From assembly GCA_964016885.1 (NCBI GenBank), contig OZ024748.1, positions 28,644,001 to 28,708,000 on the forward strand: a stretch of 64,000 nucleotides of DNA, given 5' to 3'. The translations under genes and the position numbers were made by a program. The stretch is from Eledone cirrhosa (taxonomy: Eukaryota). The notes under the pieces were generated by a model. That model saw only the letters and a program-made list of their open reading frames with translations. It was not told the origin of the DNA and made no database searches. Below are positions 18,733 through 57,170 of this stretch, piece by piece; position 1 is the first letter of the stretch, and each line of letters opens with the position of its first letter.

Positions 18733-20427
18733 TAATAGACAATAGATAATGAAATATAACAGGTAAATATTTACCGATAAATACCGATAAAATAAAATAA
18801 AAATAAATGAGCGTATAGCAAATATACGATAAGATGTATAGAGATATAGGCAATTCAAATACATACAGCAATATAATATTACATATTAATATTTCAACAC
18901 CAAACATATAATTGCAAGGGAGAAAGATTTAAATCATATTTACTCAATATATTCATCGACACAAGTGACAAAGGATAGGAAAGACAGACAGAAGCAACAA
19001 ATTATAGCAAAACAAAACAAAAAGAAAAACAAAAACGCGTAGGCACAACAAACTGTTAGGTGAAAATTAATGATACAACTATTCAAAGTCAAATAACTGA
19101 ATCGAAACCCTTATTAATTTCAATTAATTTATTAAAAGTTAAATAAACATTATGGTACACTCCATTTGGAACAAAGTTTAAGTCACTAATGCCGATAGAA
19201 ATTAAGATATTCCAATAAATGAGCGAATACATTCATCGAATATATATTTAATTTCCGTTATGACGACTAATGTTATCCAAAGTAAAGATTCCAATAAAAA
19301 CTATGGTGGACAAAAAGGAACAGAAAGAAGTAAAACTATGGAGGACAAAAAGGAACATAAAGATATAATATATATATTCAATAAAGAAAAAAATTAAGTG
19401 TAGAAAAAATGAAGTTCATTAACCGTAGATGTAGAAGACTAAAATTAAACTATTAGTTAGTCAAGGAGACAATAAGATACACTCCAACTAGGGATGAATA
19501 TAAAGATAGAAATATATAAGTCAACAAAGGATGAGTATAAAGATAGAGATATAATAATGGACAAGGGACTAAATAGGCTAAATAAGCTAAAAAAACAACT
19601 AGAAAACTAAAAATCAATAAACCGAAGAAAACTAATAATAATAATAATAAACTAAAATGATAAGGAATCCAAACAGCTATTGAATACTAATACGACACAA
19701 ACAATTGTGTTATACATATAACTAAACATCCACACACATATACATATTCACAAAAAATATATATCTACAAATATAACCACAGATACAAAACCCTATACAC
19801 ACAGAACCACTCACGTGCTAAACTTTCACATACCTACCAGCCCAAGAGAGTGTGTGTATCAATTCGCCAATGATGATGAAGTATCTACGTCCAGCTATAG
19901 AAGACCCCATCCTGTATAGACACCATAACTCACAGAAAAGAGTAAGTGGTATATTAAGAAACATAAAGAATATAAAAATTTTTTAAAAAATATAAAATAT
20001 AAAAAATATCTAGACAAGACGTCTAAACCAGAATAGTAAAGTGAGATTCCGAAAAATCAACTACCTGAGCTTTTAGGTTTATAATAGAAGAAGGAATTAG
20101 AGATAGCATGCGGACAGGATGAAAAGATTTCCGATTTTCTATTTAGTAATACATTTTTAGAGAAAATTATACAATGGGTTTCTAGAATGCAAAGATTACA
20201 GAATTTAGCGTGGGTGGAATAATGGTTAGAATAGGATACAATACGCCAATGCAGACTGTACGGTATACCGGTCCCTTTCAAATCCCAAATTTGATGCGCC
20301 AAAGAAGTTGAGTTTTTAAATTTAATATATTTAAAGTTAGAGACATGCAAATTAAACCTCGTTTTTTTGCAAATTAAACCTCGTTTTTTTTTTGCAAATT
20401 AAACCTCGTTTTTTTTTTGTCTTTTCC

Positions 20428-32639: not shown

Positions 32640-34145
32640 AGCTGTATATAGCTATGGTGCGGCCACACTTAGAATTTGCATCACCAGTCTGGAGCCCCTA
32701 TCTTGCTCAGAACATTGACCTCCTGGAAATTGTTCAGAGACATGCAACCAAGTGAATACTTTCCATCAGGCATCTACCATACTCTGAACGCCTTGATTCC
32801 CTGGGCATTGAAGCTCCGACGTCTGGCAACTTCGTCCGGTTGATGACCATCCTAACCGTACTTCGTCCTCACCGAGACCTATCTCAATCCCTCCCACTTG
32901 GAAGCTGAGGTGAAAGTGAAGAATTTCAAAGCTATCCATGCAGATCGCGCTGGCAGAAGAAAGTGTGGGGCTGCCATTTTTGTACATGATTCTTTTTCGA
33001 CAGAGGCTAAGAACTTATTTTCCAATGAATACTGTAAAGCAGTCACTGTGTACAGTAAAACCAACAACTTAATAGTAGCTGGACTCTATAGGCCACCCCA
33101 AACGCCTCTACCATGCTTCAAGGAATGCCTCAACAGCATAATGTGTTTCATCCAACAGTGACACCGTGGCAACATCTTAATGGTGAGAGACTTCAACCTC
33201 CCCAGTGTTGACTGGTCCACAAACAGCTTGATACCAGGTTTTTCCCTCTCAACCCTTGACAAGCAGGTAGTAAAATCGCCTCTTGACTTCATGGATGAGT
33301 TTTTCCTGTTCCATTCACACACCCACTAACATCAAAAAATCATGGCAGTCATTTGTAGACACTGTAACAAATGTATGTGCAAAACATACCCCATTAAGAT
33401 CTGTAAAGAAATCTAAGTGCAGAATCCCTAGAAATAGAACACTTATCAGAAAAATTAATACAAAAAAATCAACAAACTGAAATACTGCCAGCAGCAACAC
33501 ACCCATTTGAATGCCATTACATCACTAGAATCGAAAAAACACAACCCCCAAAACAGCATGATGTCTATCATCAACAATCAAAAAAGCTGAAGAGGTCTGG
33601 ACCATTAAGAAAATCAAAGTGTTCTTTTCATTTACGAAAAAACACACAGTCACTGGCTCCACTGTTGGCCCTCTAGTTGATGAAAATGGCACTCTCCAAG
33701 ATAATGCTAAAACCATGGGTGAGATACTGCAGAAAAAACACTGCTCTGTTTTCAGCAATCCCGATATGGCTGATCTGGGCTGTATCAGTGATGTTAACCC
33801 CCAACGCACTATATTGGACATAATGTTTGGCGCCCCTGCTGTCTTAGCGGCAATAAAAGATACTAAACACAATTCAGCGGTAGGCCCCGATTGGTTCCCT
33901 GCTTGGGTCCTGAAGGTGGGTCGACACCAACTTGCATCTCCTCTTGCTAATCTGTGGAGGAACTCACCGGATACTAGATATATACCAGAAAACTTCCTAT
34001 CCCAGTCTGTTGTCCCAGTTTTCAAACAGGGAAACAAATCCCTTGCTGTGAATTACCGTCCAATCTTACTCCCCTCTCATATCATCAAGGTATTTGAGAG
34101 GGTGGTGAGATCACGAATAACTCACTTTCTTGAAAGCAACAATCG
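32640..34145 (+). pseudogene. CR1/L2-group LINE fragments (RT C-terminal piece, then deleted APE and RT N-terminus)
   Basis: VRPHLEFASPVWSPYL..VQR; GAAIFV, GLYRPP, DFNLP.VDW; GPD, VVPVFKQG, NYRPI.L.S..KVFE. Confidence 0.8.
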
Positions 34146-35280
34146 GCCACCCAGCTCTTTTTCTGTTGAGGAACTGCTTCGCCATGCCGAAGCTCCTCTA
34201 TACCCTTCGTAGCGCTCCGTGCTACACTCACGCATCTCTCCTCGCTGACCTCGATACTTTACCTGTCAGGTATGGCGGCCGTGGCCTCCGGTCCCCGATC
34301 TCACTGGCTTTGCCCGCGTTTCTTTCGTCGGTAACCTCATGCCGCGTCCTCGTCAGCAGGGTTCTCCAAAACACAATAGAACCCTCAGTGTTCAGAGAAC
34401 GTGAGACCGCCTGTGAGACGTGGGACCGGCTCGGACTTAGCCCAGTAGATGACCCTCCTCCTTCTCCCCTTGCTGATGTCAAGTCCCCCCGAAGCACTTG
34501 GGATGCCATCCAGTGCAGCCTGGCTTCACACAGGCTCACGCGCCAGCTCGACCAACACCGCCTTACCTGTTTTCGTACGGCCTCCAAACCCCACAGTGGT
34601 GCCTGGCTCCATGCCCTGCCCTTCTTCTCCACTGGTACGCTGCTAGACAACAATAGCCTGCGCATCGGCGTTTCCTTGAGGCTCAGCCTCCGGATCTGTG
34701 AGCCACACCAATGTCGCTGTTGATCCACCGTGGACTCTTTCGACCTCCACCCGCTTTCCTGTCGCCACAGTGCCGGCCGTCTTCCACGCCATGCTGCCCT
34801 CAACGAGGTCATAAAGCATGGCTTGGTCGCTGCAGGCTTCCCTTCCCAGCTCGAGCCGGTGGGACTGAACCGAGGGGACGGCATGACCATCTTCCAGTTC
34901 CGCGGTGGCAAACCCCTCGTCTGGGATGCCACTTGCACCGACACTTTCTGCAGCCGCAACCTGGTGCAGTCTGCGACTAACCCAGGTTCTGCTGCACGTC
35001 GGGTTGAGGAGGCCAAACTCCTCAAATACCGGTCGCTCTCCGACAGGTGTGCGGTTATACCCTTGGCAGTGGAGATTTCTGGTACCCTCGGCCCTAGGGC
35101 TACCTCCCTACTCACCGCCATAGGCGCTGAGCTGGCCAGCCGCATGTGTGAGTCTCGCGAGCTGGAGTGGCTTTTCCAGCGCGTCTCCCTTGCCGTCCTT
35201 CGGGGAAACGCCTTCTCCATTCTGTCCGCCGGGGTTGTGGAGAGACAAGCCGATTATATTACGAATTCTGTTGAATAGTC
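34143..35280 (+). mobile_element. CRE-clade LINE 3' part, same family as 24100-26370
   Basis: high similarity to the 24-kb copy; CxC..HPLSC..RHAALN, WDATC, FQRVS..RGNA. Confidence 0.85.
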
Positions 35281-36404: not shown

Positions 36405-36414
36405 TAAATAACTA

Positions 36415-38100
36415 AAACCACGCAACCAAGATACAAACAGAAAGCCTGAACCAGCGTGGATGCGTAATTTAAAAAACAAAATTTTGTCCCTGAGACGAAG
36501 TATCGCACAGATCACTTTAATTATAAAATGCAACATAGAGACCAACTTCACACGACAAGAGGAGGACGTAAGAAAAAAACTAGATAAGCGATTTGGAGAT
36601 ACGAGATTTAAAACTCTAAACTCGAAACTACACCAGTTGAAACAACAACTCACAGCTGCAGCAGAACGACTAAAATATAAGTCAATAGCACATAAACGGC
36701 AAGTGCTAAATAGATTATTAGTCAGCGATCCTAAATCAGTTTATCGCAGCGTCAATGAGAAAAGCACAATCTCTGTAAATGACACCCCTAGAAAAGAACA
36801 GGTTGAGAGTTACTGGAGATCTGTATGGGAAACGAATGACGGATTTAGCAAACAAACTAAATGGCTAAAAGAACTGGAACAGGAATACTGCCAGCATGTC
36901 CAGACAAAACAATATGACATAGATGGGTCAATCCTGGGAACAGCTCCGCAGAAAATGTCGAATAGGAAATCACCAGACCCAGACCTCACAACAGGTTATT
37001 GGCTGAAGAATTTCCCCTTCTATCGGCAAGATCTCATACGGCTGTTTAGAGAAACCATCAAAGGCACACAAGAACTGCTCCAATGGTTATCAACTGCAAC
37101 TACTCTTCTCATCCAAAAAAATAACCAGACCACCCTCGCTAAAAATTACCGCCCAATAGCCTGCCAGAACTTCATGTATAAATTATACACTGGGGGCCTT
37201 AATCTGTTCTTACAGGATCATTGTGCCACTAACGATAATATAACACCTCAGCAAGCTGGTGGAAAGAAGGTGTGGGGCTTCATAGATCACCTACTAACAA
37301 ATAAAATGATACTGGAAAAAATAGCAAAGAATCGCAGGAGCATGACTGTGGTGTGGCTGGACTATCAGAAGGCTTTTGATAGTGTACCTTATGGGTGGAT
37401 TATTAAGGCTTTACAGTTAGCCAAAGTCCCACAACCACTAGTAGCTGCTGTTGAACGTCTGACAAACAACTGGTACACCAATGTTATCCTTAGGGGTGAG
37501 AAGAAGCAAATTAAGACTGATACAACACACTACCAGAAAGGAATCTTTCAGTGTGATAGCTTATTAGGGCTGCTCTTCGTCCTCTCACTAAACCCACTAT
37601 CATACCTGCTCAGAAAACAAAGTGGTCATGGAAGTGTGTCGAGAAGTATCTCCCATCTTTTCTGATTTTAAATTGTGTGGACCAAATATCAACTATATTA
37701 AAAAACCTCTTTTCACAATTTTCTGCAGTCATCAGAATGAAATTTGGTTAGTCCAAATGTGCATATTTGACAGTAAAACGTGGAAGGGTTGTGCCCTCCT
37801 CTGGAAGTCTAGAGGTGAACGGCTTGACAATACAACCTCTACAGTCAGGTGACAACTACAGATATCTTGGACAGGATGAGAATGTCAGATATGATGGATG
37901 CATAAACAAGGAGAGAACCAGAATTGAATACCTCTGGAGAGTAAAGAAAATAGGGTCACCAGAACTATCAGCGTACAACAAATACATTGTCCACAATACT
38001 TATGCTGGGTCAATCCTAACACCAACATTTGGCCTGCTGAACTGGTCATTGCAAGAACTAAGTGAGATGGATGTAAGAACTCGCAAGCTTCGACAGCAGA
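36415..38100 (+). pseudogene. R4/Dong-like non-LTR retrotransposon RT fragment
   Basis: KSPDPD, NYRPIAC, WLDYQKAFDSVP, GIFQCDSL, YRYLG; frameshifts after 37665. Confidence 0.8.
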
Positions 38101-38422
38101 AAGAATGCAAGGAGCAAATATCAAGTAAAATAACGGAGTAAAGGATTCGCGTATAATCCTATAAATAAATTGAACAGTATAGGCTGCCATCTCTAGCAGC
38201 TTGTTCTGTTCATACCACCGGTTACTGCCTCGCGCACGTATTTCCCTTATATTTACACGCGCTACAGGTGGTTTACTATAGTTCTCTCTCTCTAGTAGTG
38301 CGGACAATAACGGTCTCTCCACATGCTGATGACCCACAGAGCCGAATTGGAACCCACTAAAATGGCGAAACAATCTCCTGGTGAGTTTGTACATGTGTGA
38401 TTTAGGTATGAGGTTGGTTTCT

Positions 38423-39911: not shown

Positions 39912-40111
39912 ATGTGAGAAAAACCACAGATCCTCCATCTCAACTCTACTTTTGAAAAGCAGAACTGTAAAACCGGTAAAGGAACCAAATAAATATATAT
40001 ATATTTTTTTAAATATGACTCCAGTTTCATTTTCGATTTCATCTTTTTTTCTTTATACTTTCACTCGTGTAGGACACCTCGGTTATTTTTCATTTTGTAA
40101 AAAAACCTCAC

Positions 40112-40118
<7 letters not shown>
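39912..40118 (+). mobile_element. PLE 3'-end remnant (family of 11826-14032)
   Basis: homology including tail and mutated U3-A8 hammerhead. Confidence 0.75.
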
Positions 40119-40775
<657 letters not shown>

Positions 40776-40785
40776 CATATCATAA

Positions 40786-41981
40786 TCTATAATCATAATC
40801 TATAAAGCTCAGTGTGTGGTCGTGCTCCTTTCTTATAGAAATCTACGATATAGAATTTCTTCAATTGAAATTTACAATTCAGTATTCGAAATAGTTTCGA
40901 TTGCGTCTTGGCACATCTCATTTTTTCAATTTCACCCACAATTACGCAAAAAATAGATAAAACTCAATATTTTACGATTTTTCTCTGTCATTTAAACTGC
41001 TAAACTCTTTCCACTACCATTCAAAATCTATACAACTTCATACTTTCTGCTACTTTCTCTTTCCAAGCTTGATGGTGATACTGTCCGTTTTACTCTCTCA
41101 TATCATCTGCTTCCCTCTATCTACCACTCACACATTTTGCTACTTTCTCTTTTATACTTCAAATTATTACATTTCATACGAAACGACAATTATTCAAAAG
41201 CAGCAGATACATTTATTCAACAACAAGCGATAAATCTTTTTTAAAACCTCTTTTCCAAACGCATACAAACACACACTCACTTCAACAACAACAACAATCT
41301 GCTTTTATAGATAATGATAAACAATAATATCCTCTATGAGGTCACTAAACCTGCTAGAAACAGCAGCTAACTCTCCCCCATACCACACCGCTCCCTACTG
41401 TCTTAAATTTAGAAAACATATCTTCTATGAGGTCACTAAACCTGCTAGAAACAGCAGCTAACTCTCCCCCATATCACACCCATCCATACTGTCTTAAATT
41501 TAGAAAACATATCTTCTATGAGGTCACTAAACCTGCTAGAAACAGCAGCTAACTCTCCCCCATATCACACCACTCCCTACTGTCTTAAATTTAGAAAACA
41601 CATATCCTCTATGAGGTTACTAAATCTGCTAGAAACAGCAGCTAACTCTGCCCCATATCACACCCATCCCTACTGTCTTAAATTTAGAAAACACACAGAC
41701 AACCATGCAGAAAAACTCCATCCCAGCTCTGTTGTTCGGCTGGCATCGTCTACGCGCGTGTTGCGCAAGTACTGTGAAACAATAAATTTCAACACTTTTT
41801 TGCACAGAGATAATATCCATAGGCGAAACTAGAATTGTCACTGCTGGCGCAGCTCCTGCTTCCAGGTCTGCAATTCATTCACCCAGTGCCTGGCAGACAA
41901 AAAAGTGCTGCCATAAAATGGGTGGTGCAACCTAACTTTGGTAACTTAATGACCCCGAGCAACGCCGGGCTTTAATGCTAG
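40786..41981 (+). mobile_element. Non-autonomous Helitron
   Basis: A|TCTATA start; 3' cccgagcaacgccggg hairpin plus CTAG|T, same hairpin as 36377. Confidence 0.65.
41327..41695 (+). repeat. Minisatellite, 4 x ~90 bp
   Basis: unit atatcctctatgaggtcactaaacctgctagaaacagcagctaactctccc...gtcttaaatttagaaaac. Confidence 0.9.
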
Positions 41982-42142
41982 TATATATATAAACGGAAAA
42001 AATGAAACGGAATTTCATTTCCCAGTCTTAGTACGGCTGTTACTTAAATATAAGTATGTACACGTACATACATATATGTATACAGACGTACAGTAGTATG
42101 TATATATATATACATACATGCACACATATATATATCCAGCAA

Positions 42143-42271
<129 letters not shown>

Positions 42272-42273
42272 CA

Positions 42274-42311
<38 letters not shown>

Positions 42312-42410
42312 TGTATATATATATACATATAACCACTCAGCCACGCGTTTATTATAATGCTCGGTGTGTTTGTAAACAAGCATCCCGTATTAAGCCGTAG
42401 TGTCCAGCAA

Positions 42411-42615
<205 letters not shown>

Positions 42616-42620
42616 TATAC

Positions 42621-42693
<73 letters not shown>

Positions 42694-43222
42694 AAAGAAT
42701 AGAGGTGTAACACACAAGTTATTATATATTGGTAAACGGAATAGAAAATGCTGACAAATTGTTCACAGTTGAAAAATGGTTTAATTAGGAATAAAAGAGT
42801 ATTAGTGATTGTATGGGTTAGTATTCAGTTGTGGTTTTAAGTTTTTAAATTTTTACCGGTTGCGCATTTCTAAATGCTTTTCAAAAATAATTTTGAGATA
42901 GAGTGTCCGTGCTGTTTGCTCTGATCTGATTAGTTTGGGGAATTCTACCTGTTTTTATGTTAAAAAAGTGGCTCCAGCGTTATTTTTGTGTTGCAAAAAT
43001 GCTTGTGGTCAAAACAATTTTGATTGGTCGGTAGAGGTCATGTGAATGTAAAAAGTTGATTTTGCGCCAAGACTGTTTTTATGTTAAAAAAGTGGCTCCA
43101 GCAAAAATTCTTGGTCAAAACAATTTTGATTGGTCGGTAGAGGTCATGTGGATAAAAAATTGGTTTTGCGCCAAGATTGAGAAATGACTCTTTCACAACA
43201 AATATGTGTGTGTGTGTGTGTA

Positions 43223-43309
<87 letters not shown>

Positions 43310-43416
43310 ATGTGTGTGTGTATGTGTGTGTGTGTGTGTGTGTGTAGTAGTAGTAGTAAGGTGTTCGATGCTGCGACAATGGCCAGCAGCGATGTGTGTC
43401 AAATGGCTATTAAGAT

Positions 43417-43529
<113 letters not shown>

Positions 43530-44005
43530 GCAGAGTCATTCGAAGGTCAAAAGATATTTTTCAGCTTTTGTCTTATACGGAGAAGTGCGTGTGTGTGTGT
43601 GTGTGTGTATAAGTCTCTTTGTATGTTGATGTACGCGTGTGTATGTGTTTGTGTATATATATGTGTGTGTGTGTGTGTGTGTGGGTGGACCAGTATTTTT
43701 TGCCCCCTGGTAAAATGGTGTACATTATTCGATTTTTTCAGTAAAATCGGTTCTCTTAATAGAACATCAAAAATCTTAACAATAAAAGGTGCGAAATGAT
43801 ATTCACTATATATATATACACACATACATATATTCACTACATATATATATATATATACATATATACATACATATATATGCACATATATTTTTTTGTATTG
43901 CACCATAGAGCATGTGTGTTTACGTGTGTCATTGTGTTTATATGTGGGTAGAGATGTGTGCTGATGTAGGTATGTATGTTGACGTGTGTATGTTGTGGGT
44001 TCGTC

Positions 44006-45191
44006 TTAGGGAGAAGTGTTTAGATGGGGTCCGTATTTGTTAATGAAGTAAGATTCCTTGCTGATGCGCTGGGTGTGGGTGGAATTATCTTTAAATTTGT
44101 AGAGGGGAAAGATTCTGAAGTTGGGATGATTTTGGGCGGCACAGGTATCAATGTGTTCACTCAGTGGTATTTTCCTGTATTCCCGTATTTTAATTTGGGA
44201 TCTATGGACAGTCATGCGTTGGCGGAGGCTGTTTTGGGTCTGGCCTATGTATTGTTCTCGACAACCTGAACAAGTTAATACATATATTAGATTTTCCGAT
44301 GCACATGTGAAATTGTGTTTTACTATAAAACGTTGTCCATCTTTGAAATAGAATTCCGAACCCTCTATTAGGTTGATGCAAATGCCACAGTTGGGTCTAT
44401 CGCATTTTTTTACTGTGGGTTTCGTTGTTGTGGTTGGCAGTACTTTGGCATGTGTTAAGATGTTTTTCATTGACTTGGATTGTCTTTTGCTCTTTATGAT
44501 ATCGTGTGTTCGTAGAATTTGGTTCATTCTATGGTCCTTTTTCAATACAGGGATGTTCTGGAGGATGGTGTCAAAGGCCTCATTGTTGAGGGGGTTGTGT
44601 GTGGAGATGTATGGAAGAGCTTTTAGTTTTGGTTGATTTACTTTAGGGTGTCTAAGGTCCTGGGTACTGAGTTTTAGGGCACGTTGGATTCCATTGTCAA
44701 TTAGTGATGCAGGGTAGTCCCTGCCTATGAGTGTGTCCTTTAGTTCTTGTAGCCGTAAGTAGCAGATGTTTTTATTGGAGACTATAGTACAGATTCTCTT
44801 GGCTAAGTTGTAGGGAATATTCATTTTAACGTGTCTAGGGTGGCAAGAGTTGAAGGGGAGATATTGCTTGGAGTCTGTGGGCTTGTAGTATATGTCTGTT
44901 TCTATTTTTTTGTTATGGATCTTAATGAGGATGTCGAGGAAGGGGAGTTGTTGATGGCTGTATTCCATCGTGAAGTTAATATTTGTGTTGAGCCCATTTA
45001 TAAGGGTGTGAAATTCTTTAAGTTTTTCGATGTTTTCGTGCCAAAGGATGAAGCAGTCATCTAGATATCGCTTCCAGTTCCTTTCAATGTGTAAGTGGAG
45101 GGTTTTTCCAAATTTGTTTAGGACTTTAGTGTAGAGGGTGATTTCCAGGTATCCCATGACTAGGTTGGCATAAGTAGGGGCTGTTTTCGTT
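44006..45191 (-). pseudogene. Inverted 5'-truncated duplicate of the PLE RT/GIY-YIG ORF
   Basis: protein matches the C-terminal part of the 46576 ORF apart from one K/N change seen. Confidence 0.92.
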
Positions 45192-45211
45192 AAATCAACA
45201 CCAACCTATCT

Positions 45212-46438
45212 TTGCTGGTCGACAAACTTGACTCCACAAATAAGGAAACCGCCACCGGATACAAACCCTCCGAAATCGGCGACAAACTCCAAAACCTTTG
45301 CGATACTATCCAAACTATGTTCACTACTACCAACCCAGGAAAAACCAACGAAGAACCATGTGAGATTGATTCACACAAAATGAAAATTCGAACAATTCCA
45401 AAATGGAACAAATCCCTCAGAGACAGAAAGTTCTCATTCTGGAAGATGATACAAAATCACAACAAAGCAGAGATATATGAAAAATGGCTTAACTCAACCC
45501 CTCTAACTCTCCCCCGTAAACTACAAATAAAGTCCATTCCAAATGAACCCGAACCTCAAAGACACCTTAGGGAAAGAATGGCATTGGAAAAAATGAAGAC
45601 AGAAATTGAACTTCTTAAACTGAGGGCCCAGACAAATGAGGAAAAAATCAAAACCATCGATGAAGAGATCCTCCTGGAAATCAATAACAAAACTGAAGGC
45701 CCCAAGGTAGAGAAGATCTCCAAATTATGGAAAGGGGACTGCAACAGAGAAGAACTGAAATCCCTTCAACGCCGGGGAAAAAGTGCCGCTTGGTTCCTAC
45801 ACTATGAATCGACTTTTCAAACGGATTACACCTCCAATAACCCGTTCATAAAAATAGGAAAACCCATAACTGAACCGCACAACAACTTCTCAAACCCCCA
45901 AGCCTCAAACAAACGAAGAAGGAAGCACCACACCGAAGATGAACTTCCCAACCTCGCTACCATAAGAAGGAACAAAAACCCAAGAAATCATCTCCCCCAG
46001 AATGACATTTACAACTTTCCCCCTTCAAGGAGACACCATACCAAATCACTCAACTACTACGCGGATTCCTCATCGTCAAACATAGGGAAAAGATACCACC
46101 GCCATGATAGATGCAACAACTTCCCCGCTTCAAGGGGACAGCAAGGTAATTACCATTTTCTCAACTCTCACTTCCACAATACACAACAAACCCACACCAC
46201 ACGATACAACCAACAACGTAGGCCACTTATAACACCACAATACAACATGGCACATAGAAACACACACCCATACTCGCAGTACAGGAACACCCCATTCAAT
46301 CTACAACCACCAACCCGAACCACATTTTACAACAACAAGGAATATAACAAACACAGGAGACCACTTAACATCAGCAGACAACCCCTCTACCCCAACCATT
46401 TTTTAGACACAGCACACAGATACAGGCAAACAAAATAA
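45212..46438 (+). CDS. PLE ORF1 (coiled-coil plus basic low-complexity tail), probably 5'-truncated at the inversion junction
   Basis: 408-aa open frame; heptad-like ERMALEKMKTEIELLKLRAQTNEEKIKTID; R/H/N-rich C-terminus. Confidence 0.7.
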   Translation: MLVDKLDSTNKETATGYKPSEIGDKLQNLCDTIQTMFTTTNPGKTNEEPCEIDSHKMKIRTIPKWNKSLRDRKFSFWKMIQNHNKAEIYEKWLNSTPLTLPRKLQIKSIPNEPEPQRHLRERMALEKMKTEIELLKLRAQTNEEKIKTIDEEILLEINNKTEGPKVEKISKLWKGDCNREELKSLQRRGKSAAWFLHYESTFQTDYTSNNPFIKIGKPITEPHNNFSNPQASNKRRRKHHTEDELPNLATIRRNKNPRNHLPQNDIYNFPPSRRHHTKSLNYYADSSSSNIGKRYHRHDRCNNFPASRGQQGNYHFLNSHFHNTQQTHTTRYNQQRRPLITPQYNMAHRNTHPYSQYRNTPFNLQPPTRTTFYNNKEYNKHRRPLNISRQPLYPNHFLDTAHRYRQTK

Positions 46439-48723
46439 CACAAGACAGGGAGGAGAAACCGATAGTAATAAAAATTATCAATCTTATTAGTGCAGAACCA
46501 ACACCCAACCTTATCAACTTACTCTCCAAAGGTCTTAAATTCACACCGACCCCACTACGTCCTAACTACTATGAAATGAAGGAAGACATCACAGACTTCT
46601 GTAGAAAGTTACGACTTAGTGAACAACTATTCGACCAGTACAATGAGGATGAATCATTAGCCAGAAATAGAAGCAATTACACCCCTTCAAAAGGTAGAAA
46701 TAAAATCCTGGACGAATTCTGTGAACACATCACAAACTTCCCTTACCAACACTTGCACAGACAAAAACACAAGCCAAACCTCAACAAGAAAGAATGGGAA
46801 GAATTAAATAGATTAAAAACCGACAGAACCATTACAATTAAAGAGGCTGATAAAGGGAGTACAGTAGTCCTAATGGAGACAGAATTCTATATCAACTTAG
46901 CGCTCTCCACTTTGGAAAACGAAACATACTACGAAAAGGCTGAACACTACAATCAACAGAAAATTATGAGAAACCTAAAAACTCTAATCAACCAATACAA
47001 AGAAGGACTCACTAACAAGGAATTCAGCTTCATCACAGACTTCACAAGTAAATCCAGCCTTTTCTACGGTATCCCTAAAGTACATAAAAGCGAATCAATC
47101 AGTAAGGCATGCAAGGAAGCCACAGACATAGTCATCAATGTCCCCTCACCCAATGATCTCAAATTAAGACCTATAATAGCAGGCCCCGCTTGCGAAACGC
47201 ACCGTCTTAGCAACTTCATTGATACCCTTCTCAAACCCTTCCTCAAGCACATCAAAAGCTATATAAGGGACGACCTAGATATGCTCAATCACCTCCCTAA
47301 TATGCCACTTTCTGAACAAACCCTACTAGTGACGTTCGATGTAGTCAACCTATACTCCAACATCCCCCACAACCTAGGAATAGAAGCTATCCAATTCTGG
47401 CTGGATAATTTCCACAATGAACTCCCACAACGCATCAAAAAAGAATTCGTGATAGAGGAACTCAAATTTATCTTGGAGAACAATTACTTCGTTTTCAATA
47501 ACAAACCCTACACGCAGAAATCTGGGACCGCTATGGGAACGAAAACAGCCCCTACTTATGCCAACCTAGTCATGGGATACCTGGAAATCACCCTCTACAC
47601 TAAAGTCCTAAACAAATTTGGAAACACCCTCCACTTACACATTGAAAGGAACTGGAAGCGATATCTAGATGACTGCTTCATCCTTTGGCACGAAAACATC
47701 GAAAAACTTAAAGAATTTCACACCCTTATAAATGGGCTCAACACAAATATTAACTTCACGATGGAATACAGCCATCAACAACTCCCCTTCCTCGACATCC
47801 TCATTAAGATCCATAACAAAAAAATAGAAACAGACATATACTACAAGCCCACAGACTCCAAGCAATATCTCCCCTTCAACTCTTGCCACCCTAGACACGT
47901 TAAAATGAATATTCCCTACAACTTAGCCAAGAGAATCTGTACTATAGTCTCCAATAAAAACATCTGCTACTTACGGCTACAAGAACTAAAGGACACACTC
48001 ATAGGCAGGGACTACCCTGCATCACTAATTGACAATGGAATCCAACGTGCCCTAAAACTCAGTACCCAGGACCTTAGACACCCTAAAGTAAATCAACCAA
48101 AACTAAAAGCTCTTCCATACATCTCCACACACAACCCCCTCAACAATGAGGCCTTTGACACCATCCTCCAGAACATCCCTGTATTGAAAAAGGACCATAG
48201 AATGAACCAAATTCTACGAACACACGATATCATAAAGAGCAAAAGACAATCCAAGTCAATGAAAAACATCTTAACACATGCCAAAGTACTGCCAACCACA
48301 ACAACGAAACCCACAGTAAAAAAATGCGATAGACCCAACTGTGGCATTTGCATCAACCTAATAGAGGGTTCGGAATTCTATTTCAAAGATGGACAACGTT
48401 TTATAGTAAAACACAATTTCACATGTGCATCGGAAAATCTAATATATGTATTAACTTGTTCAGGTTGTCGAGAACAATACATAGGCCAGACCCAAAACAG
48501 CCTCCGCCAACGCATGACTGTCCATAGATCCCAAATTAAAATACGGGAATACAGGAAAATACCACTGAGTGAACACATTGATACCTGTGCCGCCCAAAAT
48601 CATCCCAACTTCAGAATCTTTCCCCTCTACAAATTTAAAGATAATTCCACCCACACCCAGCGCATCAGCAAGGAATCTTACTTCATTAACAAATACGGAC
48701 CCCATCTAAACACTTCTCCCTAA
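46348..48723 (+). CDS. PLE reverse transcriptase plus GIY-YIG endonuclease (first ATG 46576; frame open from 46348)
   Basis: IINL..LLSKGLKFTPTP, ADKG, YGIPKVHK, RPII, FDVVNLYSNI, GTAMG, RYLDD, FLDI, SCHP, CDRPNCGIC, LIY..CSGC..YIG. Confidence 0.95.
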
Positions 48724-49117
48724 GACGAACCCACAACATACACACGTCAACATACATACCTACATCAGCACACATCTCTACCCACATATAAACACAATGA
48801 CACACGTAAACACACATGCTCTATGGTGCAATACAAAAAAATATATGTGCATATATATGTATGTATATATGTATATATATATATATATGTAGTGAATATA
48901 TGTATGTGTGTATATATATATAGTGAATATCATTTCGCACCTTTTATTGTTAAGATTTTTGATGTTCTATTAAGAGAACCGATTTTACTGAAAAAATCGA
49001 ATAATGTACACCATTTTACCAGGGGGCAAAAAATACTGGTCCACCCACACATACACACACACACACACATATATACACAAACACATACACACGCGTACAT
49101 CAACATACAAAGAGACT

Positions 49118-49180
<63 letters not shown>

Positions 49181-49235
49181 TTCTCCGTATAAGACAAAAG
49201 CTGAAAAATATCTTTTGACCTTCGAATGACTCTGC

Positions 49236-49278
<43 letters not shown>

Positions 49279-49364
49279 ATCTTAATAGCCATTTGACACA
49301 CATCGCTGCTGGCCATTGTCGCAGCATCGAACACCTTACTACTACTACTACTACTACTACTACT

Positions 49365-49403
<39 letters not shown>

Positions 49404-49405
49404 CT

Positions 49406-49438
<33 letters not shown>

Positions 49439-49766
49439 ACACACACACATATTTGTTGTGAAAGAGTCATTTCTCAATCTTGGCGCAAAACCAATTTTTT
49501 ATCCACATGACCTCTACCGACCAATCAAAATTGTTTTGACCAAGAATTTTTGCTGGAGCCACTTTTTTAACATAAAAACAGTCTTGGCGCAAAATCAACT
49601 TTTTACATTCACATGACCTCTACCGACCAATCAAAATTGTTTTGACCACAAGCATTTTTGCAACACAAAAGTAACGCTGGAGCCACTTTTTTAACATAAA
49701 AACAGGTAGAATTCCCAAAACTAATCAGATCAGAGCAAACAGCACGGACACTCTATCTCAAAATTA

Positions 49767-49803
49767 TTTTTGAAAAGCATTTAGAAATGCGCAACCGGTA
49801 AAA
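49767..49803 (+). ncRNA. Variant minimal hammerhead (U3-A8, C13) in PLE 3' UTR; copy 42851-42887 (minus)
   Basis: ttt-TTGAAAA-gcat-ttagaa-atgc-GCAA-ccgg-TA-aaa. Confidence 0.6.
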
Positions 49804-49921
49804 ACTTAAAAACTTAAAACCACAACTGAATACTAACCCATACAATCACTAATACTCTTTTATTCCTAATTAAACCATTTTTCAACTGTGAACAATTTGT
49901 CAGCATTTTCTATTCCGTTTA

Positions 49922-50017
<96 letters not shown>

Positions 50018-50243
50018 TTTGATTCTTTCTTCCTCACTTTTCGTTGCTTCACCATCTTTGTTTGTTTACACTCTCGTGTCCCCTTTATTTACGTGTCCCA
50101 ATGACTTTTTTTAGCCGTTGCTCGCACCAACCGGAGGTATATGGTCTTTAAAGCGATGAAATACCAATGATGGTTGGAAGATCACTGATGAAGGACTAAC
50201 TTTATTCATATGTAACCCATTAGCAATCACGCAGCACGTTTAT

Positions 50244-50275
<32 letters not shown>

Positions 50276-50556
50276 CCTAAACGGACGGTAGTCCGTTTAG
50301 TAATATTGTTGTGGTCGTGTTTTCGTTGGCAATCGTCTGTTTACGACAGTACAGCGCAGCTCTACTTTATTTAACTGAGATAAAACTTATATGAGCATGA
50401 ACAGTAGATCATTACGCATCTTTTGGCTTAAAAATCTAGAAATTTGGTCCAGCGGGAAAAAGTTTATAATCAAAGTTTGCTGATAAATGTTGTGTTCAAG
50501 TGAGTGAGTAGTAAGCGTGACGCTAGGGGAGGTAATCCAGAAATGACGACGTTTGG

Positions 50557-51066
50557 AATATGTATATTTGTGTACGTCGCCATATATGTATGTATGTGTG
50601 TATATGTATATTTGTGTATGTCGCAATATATGTATGTATGTGTGTATATGTATATTTGTGTACGTCGCCATATATGTATGTATGTGTGTATATGTATATT
50701 TGTGTACGTCACCATATATGTATGTATGTGTGTGTATGTATATTTGTGTACGTCGCCATATATGTATGTATGTGTATATGTATATTTGTGTACGTCGCCA
50801 TATATGTTTGTATGTATGTGTGTATATGTATATTTGTGTACATCGCCATATATGTATGTATGTATGTATGTGTATATGTATATTTGTGTACGTCGCCATA
50901 TATGCAGTATGTATGTGTGTATATGTATATTTGTTTATGTCGCGATATATGTATGTATGTATGTGTGTATGTGTGTATATGTATATTTGTGTATGTCGCC
51001 ATATATGTGTGTATGTATGTGTATATGTATATTTGTGTACGTCGCCATATATGTATGTATGTGTGT
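50557..51066. repeat. Minisatellite ~42-50 bp x ~11 upstream of the Helitron ORFs
   Basis: unit atatgtatatttgtgtacgtcgccatatatgtatgtatgtgtgt. Confidence 0.9.
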
Positions 51067-53456
51067 ATCGGGCTCACATACATTCTCTGTGCGTGATTTG
51101 GCTCAGCTCAGCCAATCAGCGCCAGTAGAAGAGGATGTATCCCTACGCGTTCGGAGGGAGAAATAGCCCGCAAAGATTTGAGGACGCTATCACTTCCAGG
51201 CTAGACCGTGTTAAGGTAAACAACACTTGTTCTTTTGCTCCGTAAGCACAAACAATATGTAACGACAAAACATTACCTACGAGCCTGACCAAACGCCTTC
51301 AGCCAGCCGCCCGTATTTTCTCTTGTAATCTTAATTGAATTATTTCATTATTCTTGGCATGCCAGCTTAATTCACTTCTTAACCTTTATTAATAAATAAT
51401 GTAAAAACAAGCTAAAATTCGTTGTCGATATTCCTATCGTATCTTTCTACCAAACCTGGTTCCTCGTGGCAACAACACAACAATTCTCTAAATATTCTTC
51501 TCCGCTAAATTCGAATTTATACTTAAACCAAATTGGTGACAATATATCTACACCAAATGTGTGACCCTCGACGATTAAGTATGAACACGCAGCCTATTTG
51601 AATTCGCCAGTCGTTTTAACGGAAATGTGGAGTGGCTTAACATTTGGAATATTCGAATCGGGTTTCTAGACTCGCTTAGCGTAAGTCCATAAAATTCATA
51701 ATATTCCATTTGTTGAAGCACGCGACCTACACAATATTTCTGTTATAACTTTCATGGTAACACAAGTAACTCACGCATACAGACGAACACAAAAATACTA
51801 CACAAAAGAAAGAGTTTTTTCGACGTCTAACAAAAAATTTCTCTTTTGGATTGAAAATTATTATTGCGAGCATAGTTTGATAAAAACAAAAAACAAAAAG
51901 AATTTAAAAAAAAAAAAAAAGAAATTCTCTGGATATAGAATTTTGCTCGGCTTATTCAGTTTTTCCATGGCACAGAAATGGAGTATTTCCATTTCGAATC
52001 AATACCTTTCACTAAAATCGGGCAATTGGACTGATCAAATTCACATTCATGCCAGTTTTTACAAATCGGAGGTGAGCAAAGTGAGACAGGTGCACAAAAA
52101 GAGTGGGGTGAGCAAAGTGACCAGGAAGATTTTGATGGCAGAAAATGTACAGAACTTCTGACTTTGGCTAGATTGTGCAACTTTGGTCCCCCATCAAATT
52201 GCCCAGATCCCACTGCACGTCTAAAGCTAGCTAAACGAATGCACAAGGCCATACATGAACTTTCACCTGATTTGACTGTGTCCCAAATTCGGACAAAAAT
52301 GGAAATCTTTGAGCAGTGTAAAGGATTCCATAGGGACAACATCTATTGCATAGGACAGTCTGACTGCACAAATGGACTTGAACTGATTCGAAGTATGGCT
52401 CCTCACTCTCCTCGCATCCGTACAATTCTGACTCCTATGACATTTCAATCTTGGAAGGAAATTGGTCAATGTTTGATGATCTAGTAAATCCCCAAAACAT
52501 GTCCAACAATCTGCTAAGCCGTTTGAATGAAATAGTGGAAAATGAAAATGAGAGCTTGCATTCAGAATCCTCAATCATGGCCAATTTTGCATCCATTATC
52601 AAACATTTTAATAAAGAGATTCAAAAAATGAAAATCAACTCCTGTGACATTTGCAAACAACGAGAATTAGATGCTAAACTCAAAGTCTGGGAGGATTGGA
52701 GCCCTTTGACAAATCCCTATCTCCTGGAAACCATTCAACAAAACTACTCTCTACCATGTACGATTTGCTCTACATGTAGAAATAGTCTTGTCAAAAAGTC
52801 GATACCATCATTGGCTTCAATCAATGGCCTAGAAGTGGTCAAAATTCCAAATATGTTGTCAAAGTTGAACATGTATGAGCAGATTTTGATCCAAATGGCC
52901 AATTGCTTCATCAATGTCATTAAATTGTCACCCTATCGTTTCAAAGGTGCACCATCACATCTAGTGGCTGCTATTAAAGGAATAGCAACTCACATGCCAC
53001 TACCAGTAGAAAACACAATCAATCATGTAATGAAAAAACTCCCATCGAATCAAAATGATGCATTTGAAATAATTGTTGATAGTGTTCCAACTAAAAAGGG
53101 CACAATTTGGCGATCGCTAGTGAATATGCAAAATGTCTTTGATGCCTTGGAGTGGCTGAAAAACAACAATGACATTTACAATGACATTTTGATAGACAGA
53201 ACCACAAATTTAGAGGACATTGTTACATGCACTGGTGAAAATGTTTCCATCAATTTTCCACACATTCTCACACAAACTGGTGCTGAAACAGTCTATGAAC
53301 ACCATACTGTACAGCAAATCAAGCCTGCACTCCCAAATCAAAAGGACCTTGAACTGTTTCGCATGAAACGAGTTGAAGGTACTATTCTTCCGGACAATGA
53401 TCCAAACCTGGATCTGATGTGCTTCCCCCCACTTATTCCCTAAAGGAAAATTTGGA

Positions 53457-55337
53457 ATGATGCACATGAACAGACCCCATGGTAGAGTAAAGCCCTATAT
53501 GTTCATCAGAAACAGACTCAGACATGAGGACCCCCGGTTTCGTAGAGACAGTCAGTACATTCTCTCCAATTTGGACAAGGCTGACAAAAGAGCACTAGAT
53601 TCTGGCATTTATGCCGTAATGAAATCACTCAAAAGTCCAAAATTGACACTTGCTCAATTTTATAAAAGATTGGAAGACAATGATGAACAATTGGAAAGTG
53701 GTTTGTCAATGATGATGGCGAATGTTCCTGGAACAAAGCCATTTTGGGAACGCAAGTGCTCCGACTTGAATGCCATAGATGAGAAATTCGGTCCTGCCCA
53801 TTTGTTTATCACTCTTTCATGTGCTGAATACTTTTGGCCAGGCTTGAGGGAATTTTTGGAAAAACTCAATGAAGACATTGCAAATGTTGAAACAAGGCCG
53901 ATAGGGAATCTCTGTGCAAATGATGTTGTGGCTGTCAGTGAGTACTTTCACCATCGTTTTAGTGCTGTTTTTCATGATGTAATTTTAAATAAAAAAGGCC
54001 CATTTGGGGAAATTATTCATTACTTTTGGCGACTCGAGTATCAACAACGTGGTGCTCCTCACATTCACCTTAAAGCCTGGGTTCGGGACAGTGTAATTTT
54101 TGACAAAGATCCTAAAGAAAAAAACAAGCAATTTATTGAACGCTGCATTACTTGCCGGCTACCATCCCCTGTGGCCAGCCCAAACTTGGCAAATCTCGTT
54201 AGACGGTTCCTAGTCCATACTTGTGGCAAAGCATGCTGGAGAATAGTGAGGAGAGGGAAAAATGTTCGTAAAAAATGCCGTTTTGGTTTTGCACGTGCAG
54301 TGGGGCCATTTCGGTTTTTCTCAGTTTCTGAAAGTATCAAATCACGAAAAAATGGTAATGGGACAAAACAACTGTACCAATTGGAAAGAAAAGAATCAGA
54401 AAAGTACATAAATGACTACAATCCATGTTTACTTCTAGCCTGGCAAGCAAATATAGATGTGCAATACATTGGTGAGAATAGTATGATTTTGAATAGATAT
54501 GTCACCTGCTATCAGACTAAGGCTGAAAAAAATGAGACTGAGGGAGTGTGGGCGAATCTGGATCATTCCAAAACAAAATATGGGAAATACAAAAGTGCTG
54601 GACTGCAATTGCTTGGGAAAAGGGATACAGGAGGGTATGAAGCTGCTGACAAACTTTTGGGGCATCATTTTTACGGGTCATCAGATCATGTTATTTGGGT
54701 AGGTGCAGACATTCCCAGTAGGCGCGGCCGCAGATTGAAATCTCAAAATGATCTCGATGAACTGAGTGAACACTCAATGGACTTGTTCTACGAGAACATG
54801 GTGGAAACTTTTTACAAAAACCGGCCAAAATTCCTGAAAGATTCCTCCTTATATGAAGTTGCCAGCAAATATGAGAGGACACAAAAAAAACCTGTTGACA
54901 AAGATGTGGCTACAAAAATGAAATTGCTCAATGACAAGGGGTATTTTCATAGTGTAAAAGAGCGGGTAGTTAAAGCACCGAATATACAGCTCAAAAATGA
55001 CACAAAAGAACGTTATTACCACAATCTTCTAATGCTGTTCAAACCCTGGCGCGATGAGGACAAAGATTTATTGGGGGGCTGCAAAACATTTGAAGAGTCC
55101 TTTCATCTGTGTGCAAACAATTTGCCTGATATGGTGAATTTTCAAAATGTGAGGAAAAAAATCACTGATGCAGTTGAGATGGGGAAGAGGTTGGAGAAGG
55201 AGGGTGAAAAGGAGGGAGAGGTCGGAGAAGGACGGAGAGAAGAGGGGGAGAAGGAGGCAAGAGATGAGGCTGGTATTGATGTTCCCCAAATTCGAGATGT
55301 AGATGAAACTGCTCTACAGACAAAAGAAACAGCTTAA
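53457..55337 (+). CDS. Helitron Rep (HUH endonuclease) segment
   Basis: Rep motifs 1-3 present. Confidence 0.88.
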   Translation: MMHMNRPHGRVKPYMFIRNRLRHEDPRFRRDSQYILSNLDKADKRALDSGIYAVMKSLKSPKLTLAQFYKRLEDNDEQLESGLSMMMANVPGTKPFWERKCSDLNAIDEKFGPAHLFITLSCAEYFWPGLREFLEKLNEDIANVETRPIGNLCANDVVAVSEYFHHRFSAVFHDVILNKKGPFGEIIHYFWRLEYQQRGAPHIHLKAWVRDSVIFDKDPKEKNKQFIERCITCRLPSPVASPNLANLVRRFLVHTCGKACWRIVRRGKNVRKKCRFGFARAVGPFRFFSVSESIKSRKNGNGTKQLYQLERKESEKYINDYNPCLLLAWQANIDVQYIGENSMILNRYVTCYQTKAEKNETEGVWANLDHSKTKYGKYKSAGLQLLGKRDTGGYEAADKLLGHHFYGSSDHVIWVGADIPSRRGRRLKSQNDLDELSEHSMDLFYENMVETFYKNRPKFLKDSSLYEVASKYERTQKKPVDKDVATKMKLLNDKGYFHSVKERVVKAPNIQLKNDTKERYYHNLLMLFKPWRDEDKDLLGGCKTFEESFHLCANNLPDMVNFQNVRKKITDAVEMGKRLEKEGEKEGEVGEGRREEGEKEARDEAGIDVPQIRDVDETALQTKETA

Positions 55338-55529
55338 TACAGATCAAATATCCATATACAATCTAATTGTATCAGCAATTGAAAAACAGGAATTGCATTG
55401 GAATTCGGAAAAACCACTACCAAGGTGCAGATGTGATGATTGCCCACAATTTCTCAAATTTGTCTCTGGTGTAGGAGGTACAGGGAAAAGTTTTCTCATT
55501 GATATAATTTCTGACAAAGTTACTCAAAT

Positions 55530-57170
55530 TTGTTGCAAGAGAAATGGGGCCCAGTAGTCATTTGTGCACCAACTGGTATGGCTGCTTTCCAAATCAAGGG
55601 GACTACTTTGCACAGGCTCTTGAAACTCCCAGTCCAACATGGAAAGTCACCATCATATAGGGAATTAGAAAGTGATGAACTCAAAATTTTGCGATCCACT
55701 CTAGAGGGTGTCCGTCTGATAATTATCGATGAAATAAGTATGGTCAGTCATCTGATGTTGGCATTTATCCATAGGCGTCTAGATGAGATTTTTGGGGACC
55801 AGAGTCAAATGACCAGCCCTTTTGGAAAAATAAATATTCTGGTTTTTGGCGATCTACTTCAACTTCCACCAGTAAATGAAAAAACACTATTTTCCAGTAT
55901 TTCTGCATATGATGCTAAAAGGACTGGTCTGGGAATAAGTGGGCAGTCACTGTGGAAATTTTTCGACTATGATGAGCTCACTATAAACATGCGGCAAAAA
56001 AATGACAGTGAAAACTATTCTGAAATGTTGGGTCGAATAAGAATAGGATCACCTACAGACATGGACATCAAGACTTTGAGTGAACATTGCCTATTCCCAG
56101 ATCGCAGGGCAACAATGAGAGAGGCAACTGAGAAACTAATGCAACTTTGCACATTACCTAGTCAAAAACTTGTCTGTATTTTGCCTGTCAATGAATCTGT
56201 AGATGAATTCAACAAGGAAATGCTTAAGCATGCCAACATCAGTACAGTTGTAGTTTTTGCTGAGGACTCAGGAATGCGCCAGAAAGGTCGTAAAAAAAAG
56301 ACAAAGTCAAACAAATTTTCCAAACCCAAAAAGGCATCAGACACTGCTGAACTTGAGACTGAATTGCAAGTTGGAGTTGGGGCCAGAGTAATGCTGAGAC
56401 GAAACATTAATTTGGTGAAGGGGCTATGTAATGGCGTCATGGGAACAGTGCAAAGCATGGTCAATGGAAAAGATGGGAAAATGGGACAAATCATTGTGGA
56501 ATTTGATCACATGATAGGCAATGATATTTCAATAGAAAAGGTGACTGCAGACTATGAAATCTCTCCTGGTGTGTATGTGACACGAAAACAGTTCCCACTA
56601 AGCCTTGCCTATGCCATCACCATTCATAAATCACAGGGAATAAGTGTTGATGGGGTCATTGCTGATCTTGGTCCTCTGTTGTTCGCAGATGGAATGGCCT
56701 ATGTTGCACTTTCACGAGCTAGGAAACTCTGCAATGTCTATTTGATAGATTTTGACCCACGAACCCTGATCATGTGTGACAAATCTGCTTGGGAAGAGTA
56801 CAACAAATTGCGTTCTACAACAAAATTGCCTCCACTTGGACCATGTAGAAATAAACCACCATGCATGGCTTCTGAATCTTGCATGCCAAAAAAACGATCA
56901 TGGCGAATGTTGAATGTGGACAACCCTTCTGAATATGCTCCTCCTACCAAAAAACCTAAATTAGCTACAATTTCCATGCTCACTCTCATGATTAGACTAC
57001 AAAATAAGGAAAATGCCTGTTTTGCCAATTCCACACTTCAAGCTATTGCCCAATTGCCCAAACTTTGGGAAACTTTGTTGTCTACCAAATTACTCAGTCC
57101 AGTTGTTCAGGAAATAGCAAATATTGTCAATGATTCAAAAATTGAACTTGCCCAATCTTCACAACATTGA
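55530..57170 (+). CDS. PIF1-like helicase segment with C-terminal USP-like Cys box; Walker A lies in upstream frame 55303-55557
   Basis: SF1B helicase motifs; LQNKENACFANSTLQAI. Confidence 0.88.
   Translation: MLQEKWGPVVICAPTGMAAFQIKGTTLHRLLKLPVQHGKSPSYRELESDELKILRSTLEGVRLIIIDEISMVSHLMLAFIHRRLDEIFGDQSQMTSPFGKINILVFGDLLQLPPVNEKTLFSSISAYDAKRTGLGISGQSLWKFFDYDELTINMRQKNDSENYSEMLGRIRIGSPTDMDIKTLSEHCLFPDRRATMREATEKLMQLCTLPSQKLVCILPVNESVDEFNKEMLKHANISTVVVFAEDSGMRQKGRKKKTKSNKFSKPKKASDTAELETELQVGVGARVMLRRNINLVKGLCNGVMGTVQSMVNGKDGKMGQIIVEFDHMIGNDISIEKVTADYEISPGVYVTRKQFPLSLAYAITIHKSQGISVDGVIADLGPLLFADGMAYVALSRARKLCNVYLIDFDPRTLIMCDKSAWEEYNKLRSTTKLPPLGPCRNKPPCMASESCMPKKRSWRMLNVDNPSEYAPPTKKPKLATISMLTLMIRLQNKENACFANSTLQAIAQLPKLWETLLSTKLLSPVVQEIANIVNDSKIELAQSSQH

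Follow-up and report, generated by a model that had tools for sequence, protein, structure and literature searches.

The element examined here lies in a 64,000-nucleotide stretch of the Eledone cirrhosa genome (GenBank assembly GCA_964016885.1, contig OZ024748.1, positions 28,644,001 to 28,708,000 of the forward strand), referred to below as the window. It is a two-ORF, endonuclease-bearing (EN+) Penelope-like element (PLE), a retrotransposon in which a first open reading frame (ORF1) lies upstream of a second (ORF2, or RT-EN) that encodes the reverse transcriptase (RT) and endonuclease (EN) in the -1 frame. We propose that RT-EN is made by programmed -1 ribosomal frameshifting at a U UUU UUA heptamer near the end of ORF1, which would yield abundant ORF1 and a rare ORF1-RT-EN fusion, and on the sequence evidence we put the probability of this reading at a little over three in four. 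The same reading had been offered in a preliminary description of this DNA, which named two findings that would overturn it, namely other copies with one continuous ORF and splicing that joins the frames; both were examined, and the reading is supported.

The heptamer in the ORF1-ORF2 overlap

Coordinates are those of the window, and features lie on the plus strand unless stated otherwise. ORF1 (45194..46438) reads CAT TTT TTA GAC near its end, so that the T TTT TTA heptamer at 46399..46405 stands in the X XXY YYZ phase of ORF1, as the preliminary description had it; the sequence, the genomic copies and the related lineages all mark it as the predicted -1 shift site. The frame of ORF2 (46369..48723; 784 codons from stop to stop, with 772 residues beyond the shift site) had been described as open from 46348, which proved incorrect: a TAA at 46366..46368 closes it, and the overlap begins at 46369. 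The overlap is 70 nt long and runs into the ORF1 stop at 46436..46438, 10 codons past the Phe-Leu pair (F-L) of the heptamer, where the stop overlaps an ATA codon of the -1 frame. Within the overlap T TTT TTA is the only in-phase X XXY YYZ sequence, its T6 is the sole sense-strand run of five or more T in the 3.5-kb coding region, and the chance expectation of T6A is 0.12 per element (200 dinucleotide shuffles). The conserved N-terminal motif of ORF2, IINL...KGLKFTPTP, occupies 46474..46554 (IINL from 46474, KGLKFTPTP at 46528-46554) and does precede every in-frame ATG, as had been noted; the first of these is at 46576..46578, codon 59 from the heptamer, and a further ATG at 46571 is out of frame.

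Conservation in genomic copies and diverged lineages

A copy pattern with exact flanks and free T-run length yielded 401 copies of the family to which the window element belongs (family A), of which 380 read T6A and 5 read T7A; among the first 100 copies listed, 5 are one base short, 1 carries a substitution and 3 are T7. Other copies do not, then, have one continuous ORF. The split is not an indel of the window copy and, because 380 of the 401 family copies keep T6A, it is not private to that copy. All of the 30 best-scoring copies keep the T6A site, in a sample that is biased by having been chosen by similarity, and 11 of the 30 reach further 5' and show an ORF1 ATG 22 codons upstream, which gives a protein of 436 aa.

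Querying with diverged ORF1 proteins uncovered families B, C, D, E and G, and the comparison at the DNA level comprises eight lineages: A, B, C, D, E and G in the same genome, and L111 and L133 from other records, the last being a single broken copy on a contig of eukaryote type that sits in a bacterial bin. In every one of the eight a run of six T, in seven as T TTT TTA and in one (L133) as T TTT TTG, stands in the phase of ORF1 with ORF2 following in the -1 frame, and this settles in the affirmative the proposed check of whether the T run and the frame offset are conserved in relatives. ORF1 identity is 19-42% among six aligned lineages (A, B, C, E, G and L111) and ORF2 identity 42-58% among five; family D is closer to A, at 66-72% identity in the ORF1 core. 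Families A and D are identical over 20 nt from the heptamer on, whereas the preceding 60 nt agree at only 4-7 of 10 positions per block. Across the lineages ORF1 is open up to the site and stops 10-31 codons past it. The upstream closure of the -1 frame lies 1-20 codons ahead of the site, from which the frame is open onward; in D and L133 it is open for only one codon before the site. Not one of the 197 codons of the -1 frame summed from heptamer to IINLS is a stop, compared with 7% upstream (P about 6e-7). The first in-frame ATG falls at codon 59, 155, 12, 59, 165, beyond 96, 42 and 138 in the eight lineages. Between families the ORF1 core has a pS of 0.65-0.69 versus a pN of 0.15-0.28. These comparisons indicate that ORF1 is under protein-level constraint and that the predicted shift site, as a sequence feature, is real and deeply conserved.

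Metagenome and viral contigs scanned with ORF1 yielded no confirmed locus, and a scan of viral contigs with ORF2 gave none; the ORF2 scan of metagenome contigs gave at least one. A motif scan of prokaryote genomes returned three matches, one of them real (L133) and two due to chance, and a motif match in viral genomes was likewise judged to be chance.

Long frames that fuse ORF1 and ORF2 are rare, at 1 of 150, 3 of 123, 1 of 104 and 2 of 115 protein matches in overlapping lists. Seven fused copies were fetched, and in the six with a legible junction the fusion goes with a changed length of a C or A run nearby, namely an extra C upstream (family A), longer C runs downstream (family C) or an extra A (family E), while T6 or its position is unchanged; the junction of the seventh (L122) could not be read. 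In family C (L057-L070, L104, L129-L131) the C run about 40 nt past the heptamer measures 7 to 25 bases among 17 copies. This variable run yields in-frame fused copies, and it is a hotspot either of RT slippage or of sequencing error within the dual-coding overlap.

The ORF1 protein and its homologues

ORF1 homologues were collected with a profile made from three ORF1 proteins (E<=0.001, clusters at 50% identity), which found 684 clusters, the best 150 of them all of 541 aa or shorter. The C-terminal tails were surveyed in proteins, not DNA, from the best 150 of the 684 clusters; 151 proteins were examined, of which 51 that end within 60 residues of the core were dropped and 100 were testable. 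F-L is present within the last 45 residues in 75 of the 100 (shuffle mean 4.2, maximum 11 in 1,000) and in none of 90 over the 45 residues before the tail. Counting F-L or F-F raises the number to 79, with F-F in 4 of the 79. None of the 79 has K, E, Q, M or W just before F[LF] (background 21%; P 9e-9), which fits a required T before TTT TTA, since those residues have no codon ending in T. The wider tail pattern is [H/S/R/P]-F-L-[G/E/D]-[Q/R]-G, F425 is nearly invariant in 77 sequences, and the protein P0183 starts FFP. Fused, longer relatives of ORF1 were absent among 360 candidates, which is weak evidence.

Four tails (P0017, P0036, P0061 and P0125) read D/Y/N-F-R at the place where F-L is expected, possibly reflecting another shift site or frame. 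In close relatives a D-T-R-W motif follows F-L; it was considered as a stem or start signal and rejected, being absent in A, D, E, G, L111 and most distant tails.

The conserved core of ORF1 (45353..45826, residues 76-233) is predicted to form long helices, with pLDDT mostly above 90, and belongs to no Pfam family; the C-terminal half (45863..46438) is predicted to be disordered and is basic and N/R/H/P-rich, with a net charge of +23. No Pfam family is common to more than one of 77 members, the Atlas contains no match, and a Foldseek search of the PDB gave no match at E 0.001. A wider structure search reached a best Z of 8.8, with generic helical bundles such as syntaxin Habc, and one viral structure match was discarded as meaningless (root-mean-square deviation 68). 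On the modelled structure, the likeness to known folds appears to be that of a generic helical bundle, with no specific match, and ORF1 is probably an RNA-binding structural protein.

The proposed frameshift

Most ribosomes would finish ORF1, a 436-aa protein with a helical core and a basic disordered tail. In a minority, tRNA-Phe and tRNA-Leu would re-pair one base back on U UUU UUA and the ribosome would continue into RT-EN; the product would be a fusion protein of about 1,198 aa (426 + 772) with F-L-R or F-F-R at the junction. The predicted junction peptides are QPLYPNHFLR and QPLYPNHFFR, with QPLYPNHFLDTAHR as their zero-frame counterpart. The outcome would be a Gag/Pol-like excess of ORF1 over the enzyme. 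Because no 3' structure was found, the shift rate is probably low, or raised by a factor other than a stem, which could be slow decoding of UUA, the G-rich bases past the site, or a protein; infrequent shifting may be enough for a retrotransposon. For comparison, U UUU UUA without structure slips at about 0.1% per codon (PMC3561942), and the shift at the HIV heptamer depends on the supply of Leu-tRNA (PMC6547452).

The site shares with canonical -1 programmed frameshifting an in-phase heptamer within a -1 overlap and its retention while the flanks diverge. Several observations speak against a frameshift. The stem-loop or pseudoknot expected 5-9 nt downstream is not seen. Our tests, which consisted of stem folding and do not cover pseudoknots, gave no downstream stimulator structure in seven of the eight lineages. 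In family A the 50 nt that follow have a folding energy of 0 kcal/mol and no pairing potential, in line with the earlier remark that no clear stimulatory hairpin is visible; z-scores or energies are unremarkable in the windows tested in seven lineages (G was folded without shuffles), and families B-G have no structure in common. L133 alone has a downstream stem, at -13.8 kcal/mol without a shuffle control. It also carries T6G, a non-standard heptamer for eukaryotes, in its single broken copy. Among the homologous proteins, F[LF] is missing from 21 of the 100 tails, of which some are fragments and others read F-R, and the P values of the tail survey are overstated because the search profile contained the F-L columns and the relatives are not independent.

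A broader proposal we hold more tentatively, and would sooner see doubted than assumed: the window element may belong to a widespread, unnamed branch of EN+ PLEs, comprising hundreds of families, that is organized in retrovirus-like fashion, with an uncharacterised Gag-like helical ORF1 and a structure-free U UUU UUA frameshift into RT-EN. The drive for such a shift might come from a short conserved G-rich signal (zero-frame F-L-G-Q/R-G), from the supply of Leu-UUA tRNA, or from ORF1 itself.

Alternative explanations

Splicing could also join the two frames if TTTTTTAG were a 3' splice acceptor: ORF2 would be linked to a donor upstream in a minor spliced RNA, and the RNA that retains the intron would make ORF1 and be the template for transposition. 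Some features of the site suit this scheme and to that extent count against a frameshift. An AG directly follows the T run in six of the eight lineages (46405..46406 in the window, where it also makes up bases 1 and 2 of the first Arg codon in the -1 frame), the first AG is in a splice-compatible phase in all eight, including G and L133, which lack the direct AG, and a codon starting with G follows F[LF] in 58 of 79 proteins versus 19% expected; PLEs are, moreover, known to retain introns (PMC8557442). However, 14 of the 43 AGs in the overlaps, about one in three, are in such a phase anyway, and fusion of ORF1 to ORF2 requires a phase-2 GT donor, none of which scores 7/9 or more in ORF1 of families A-F. 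The single phase-2 donor match, in family C, falls upstream of ORF1, about 430 nt from its start; three families have just one phase-2 GT in common, a poor GTTC site derived from a W-F dipeptide. A donor in the 5' untranslated region would require an ATG, and the first in-frame ATG comes after the conserved motif in seven of the eight lineages. Nor would an acceptor fix the T at exactly six, exclude C or require ORF1 to stay in phase through the site; the variants T TTT TTA A (family G) and T TTT TTG (L133) have a shift site and no AG, as do the 4 of 79 tails with F-F and the FFP start of P0183, and 16 of 79 tails continue with a residue that yields no AG at the site or next to it. In the RNA-type run X4, one contig (46321-47200, depth 16) spans the site uninterrupted. 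X4 is a library of spliced RNA, since it joins two exons of a host ribosomal-protein gene over a GT..AG intron at a depth of 3,072, an intron that run X1 covers evenly. The PLE RNA may be of either strand and may derive from copies inside host transcripts. The contig shows that unspliced RNA exists and does not imply the absence of spliced RNA; none of the 12 joints listed ends at 46406, although contigs cannot prove absence. Thus the question raised in the preliminary description, of whether splicing joins the frames, is answered in part: no donor supports it and the one RNA contig is unspliced, but some spliced RNA may exist. We regard splicing as the most serious of the rival readings and as an unlikely source of RT-EN.

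Separate translation of ORF2, by termination-reinitiation or by internal initiation at an AUG or near-cognate codon overlapping or preceding the ORF1 stop, would make F-L a protein motif, and it draws on the overlap of the ORF1 stop with a -1-frame ATA or GTA in all eight lineages, on an in-frame ATG 12 codons past the site in family C, and on the many cases among 120 ORF2 homologues in which the start was called just before IINLS. Such translation leaves unexplained both the constant NNT TTT TT(A/G), despite the elements' preference for TTC and CTN, and the stop-free -1 frame from the heptamer on. Family C is the only one of the eight lineages with an in-frame ATG ahead of the conserved motif, an M called by gene finders can also stand for a GTG or TTG start, and the ORF1 stop appears to arise incidentally from Ile/Val codons of ORF2. 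We judge it improbable, and give just as little credence to a fusion at the nucleic-acid level, whether through slippage of a polymerase or RT at T6 or through rare in-frame genomic copies that supply RT-EN in trans. That idea accords with the 5 T7A copies among 401, with the fused copies known in families A, C and E, and with the indels that HIV RT makes at U6A in vitro (PMC5737442). Against it, T7 copies are no commoner than copies one base short (3 versus 5 among the first 100 listed), fusions mostly arise at homopolymers other than T6, none of the four sequencing runs lists an indel at the T run (5% threshold), and slippage would not require a fixed codon phase of the run. Finally, the split might be laid to a mutation of this copy or to faulty assembly, as homopolymer runs are error-prone and the window copy is truncated and mutated, but this has a negligible probability and is refuted by an arrangement that 380 of 401 copies, eight lineages and 75 of 100 homologous proteins share.

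Layout, state and class of the window element

ORF1 of the window copy is truncated at its 5' end by 22 codons relative to the 436 aa read from its own ATG in full-length copies. Within ORF2 the reverse transcriptase domain spans 47161..47724 (Pfam RVT_1, E 1.9e-07), followed by a CX4CX2C linker at 48325..48351, a zinc-finger-like motif of the Neptune/Nematis type as defined in PMC8557442, and by a GIY-YIG endonuclease, C-terminal and with CCHH residues, at 48439..48705 (Pfam GIY-YIG, E 1.8e-06, and alignment). The 3' region (48724..49935) has at its end the pseudo-long terminal repeat (pseudo-LTR) sequence, which in full-length copies also stands before ORF1; (TA)n comes next. An inverted 3' partial copy of the same element, comprising the 3' half of the RT, the GIY-YIG domain and the 3' region, lies on the minus strand at 42683..45191 (99.75% identity to 47538-49144 and onward, with a GIY-YIG match), head-to-head with the main copy at a joint at 45191/45192. 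Both ends of the insertion adjoin (TA)n, an observation from one locus only. ORF1 of the window copy bears the private changes W216R and E217G, W216 being nearly invariant, and because of these changes and its 5' truncation the window copy is, by its sequence, probably not itself active. The locus lies at 28.7 Mb of a 60.6-Mb contig and the family copies are dispersed, so the element is not telomeric. A hammerhead ribozyme was not detected, with no Rfam match at E<=1 in 40000-52000 and no core pattern in the window element, although minimal hammerheads can be missed by such searches.

The element has a PLE-type RT with the N-terminal GxKF and DKG motifs, the C-terminal GIY-YIG with CCHH, and the PLE traits of pseudo-LTRs, tandem or inverted partial copies and 5' truncation; all 120 listed ORF2 homologues carry a CX2-5CxxC linker between RT and EN. 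It departs from canonical EN+ PLEs, which are single-ORF elements, in having two ORFs in all eight lineages, and from Athena, which lacks an endonuclease and is telomeric, in its GIY-YIG domain and interstitial locus. PLE RT-EN genes also occur in records labelled as bacteria, from symbiont bins (L133, P0178, P0212, P0215, P0218, P0232 and P0239); those few of the 120 ORF2 homologues that carry names are from bivalve symbiont bins, and both are most likely mis-binned contigs of the animal hosts.

Other features of the window

A second PLE RT-EN frame lies at 7233-8765 on the minus strand (511 aa). It has no Pfam match, a CxCX5C linker and no CCHH pair, and fits the description of the Hydra clade in PMC8557442; further Hydra-like scraps are found near 17640-17969 and 20060-20398. 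At 17076-17423 (plus strand) there is a short 3' endonuclease-domain fragment that by eye resembles family E. A Helitron-like element at 52382-57167 (plus strand) is spread over three frames with DUF6570, Helitron_like_N and PIF1 helicase; the first two share about 20 nt within a conserved motif, and this suggests a frameshift mutation in that copy. Fragments of non-LTR retrotransposon RTs occupy 24104-26214, 34121-35275 and 36412-38138, with RVT_1 matches at 24745-26214 and 36412-37662, and the regions 24104-26214 and 34121-35275 are GC-rich and related to each other. No host exon is evident within the window. A separate observation is a very high-copy, transcribed short repeat in an intron of the host ribosomal protein S3a gene (L136:5570-6040).

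Significance and comparison with known systems

EN+ PLEs have been treated as single-ORF elements and their expression has been little studied. If the frameshift is real, a large group of them would have a Gag/Pol-like layout and an overlooked ORF1 family (684 clusters); gene callers would give the enzyme a false start, and annotations would miss both the first gene and the true N-terminus of the enzyme. Reconstitution in vitro would require the fusion, and probably ORF1 too, rather than an ATG-started RT-EN. Natural variants of a single slippery sequence are numerous at this site and come with no visible stimulator; through them structure-free -1 frameshifting becomes testable, and the site would constitute a natural, highly replicated eukaryotic case of such frameshifting.

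What appears to be new is an ORF1 joined by a probable frameshift in EN+ PLEs, in hundreds of families and with no visible RNA stimulator; an ORF1 frameshift as such has already been noted for some PLEs. According to the Fig. 1 legend of PMC8557442 and of its preprint, a frameshift with a pseudoknot may set the coiled-coil ORF1 of two-ORF PLEs apart. Because the legend names no clade for the frameshift, there may be an earlier published mention for Neptune. We take its frameshift-pseudoknot ORF1 to be that of Athena, to which, with Terminon, the preliminary description ascribed T6A frameshifts. A literature search, outside whose reach lay Repbase notes and subscription papers, returned no paper on frameshifting in EN+ PLEs. 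The supplement of PMC8557442 does not contain the word 'slippery', its two ORF1 notes concerning Chlamys elements, and in the 300,000 of 449,034 characters searched of a frameshifting review (PMC5009743) neither Penelope nor Athena is mentioned.

Canonical EN+ PLEs are described as single-ORF, two ORFs being reserved for elements without an endonuclease (PMC8557442, PMC11167929 and PMC6431247), which bears out what the preliminary description had said of them. A killifish Neptune is reported to have a short, non-overlapping ORF1 of no known similarity, for which no frameshift was claimed (PMC12602865). Compared by described features, the window element is like the Neptune and Nematis EN+ PLEs (PMC8557442) in its linker, CCHH residues, (TA)n target and pseudo-LTR layout, and differs from them in its separate ORF1 of 400-450 aa, upstream and in another frame, and in that no hammerhead was detected. 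With the two-ORF PLEs that have a coiled-coil ORF1 and a frameshift it shares a helical ORF1 that lies upstream of the RT ORF and is joined to it, here by prediction, through a frameshift; Athena lacks an endonuclease and is telomeric, whereas the element here has a GIY-YIG domain, is interstitial and has no pseudoknot that we could find. HIV-1 gag-pol needs a stable stem-loop past its site, while family A has no pairing potential there, and the RT class and ORF1 are unrelated (PMC3561942, PMC6547452). The identification of U UUU UUA as the HIV-1 gag-pol slippery site nevertheless holds (same sources), and the two systems have in common this heptamer, here usually followed by G, the predicted F-L-R/F-F-R junctions, and an excess, here predicted, of the structural ORF over the enzyme ORF.

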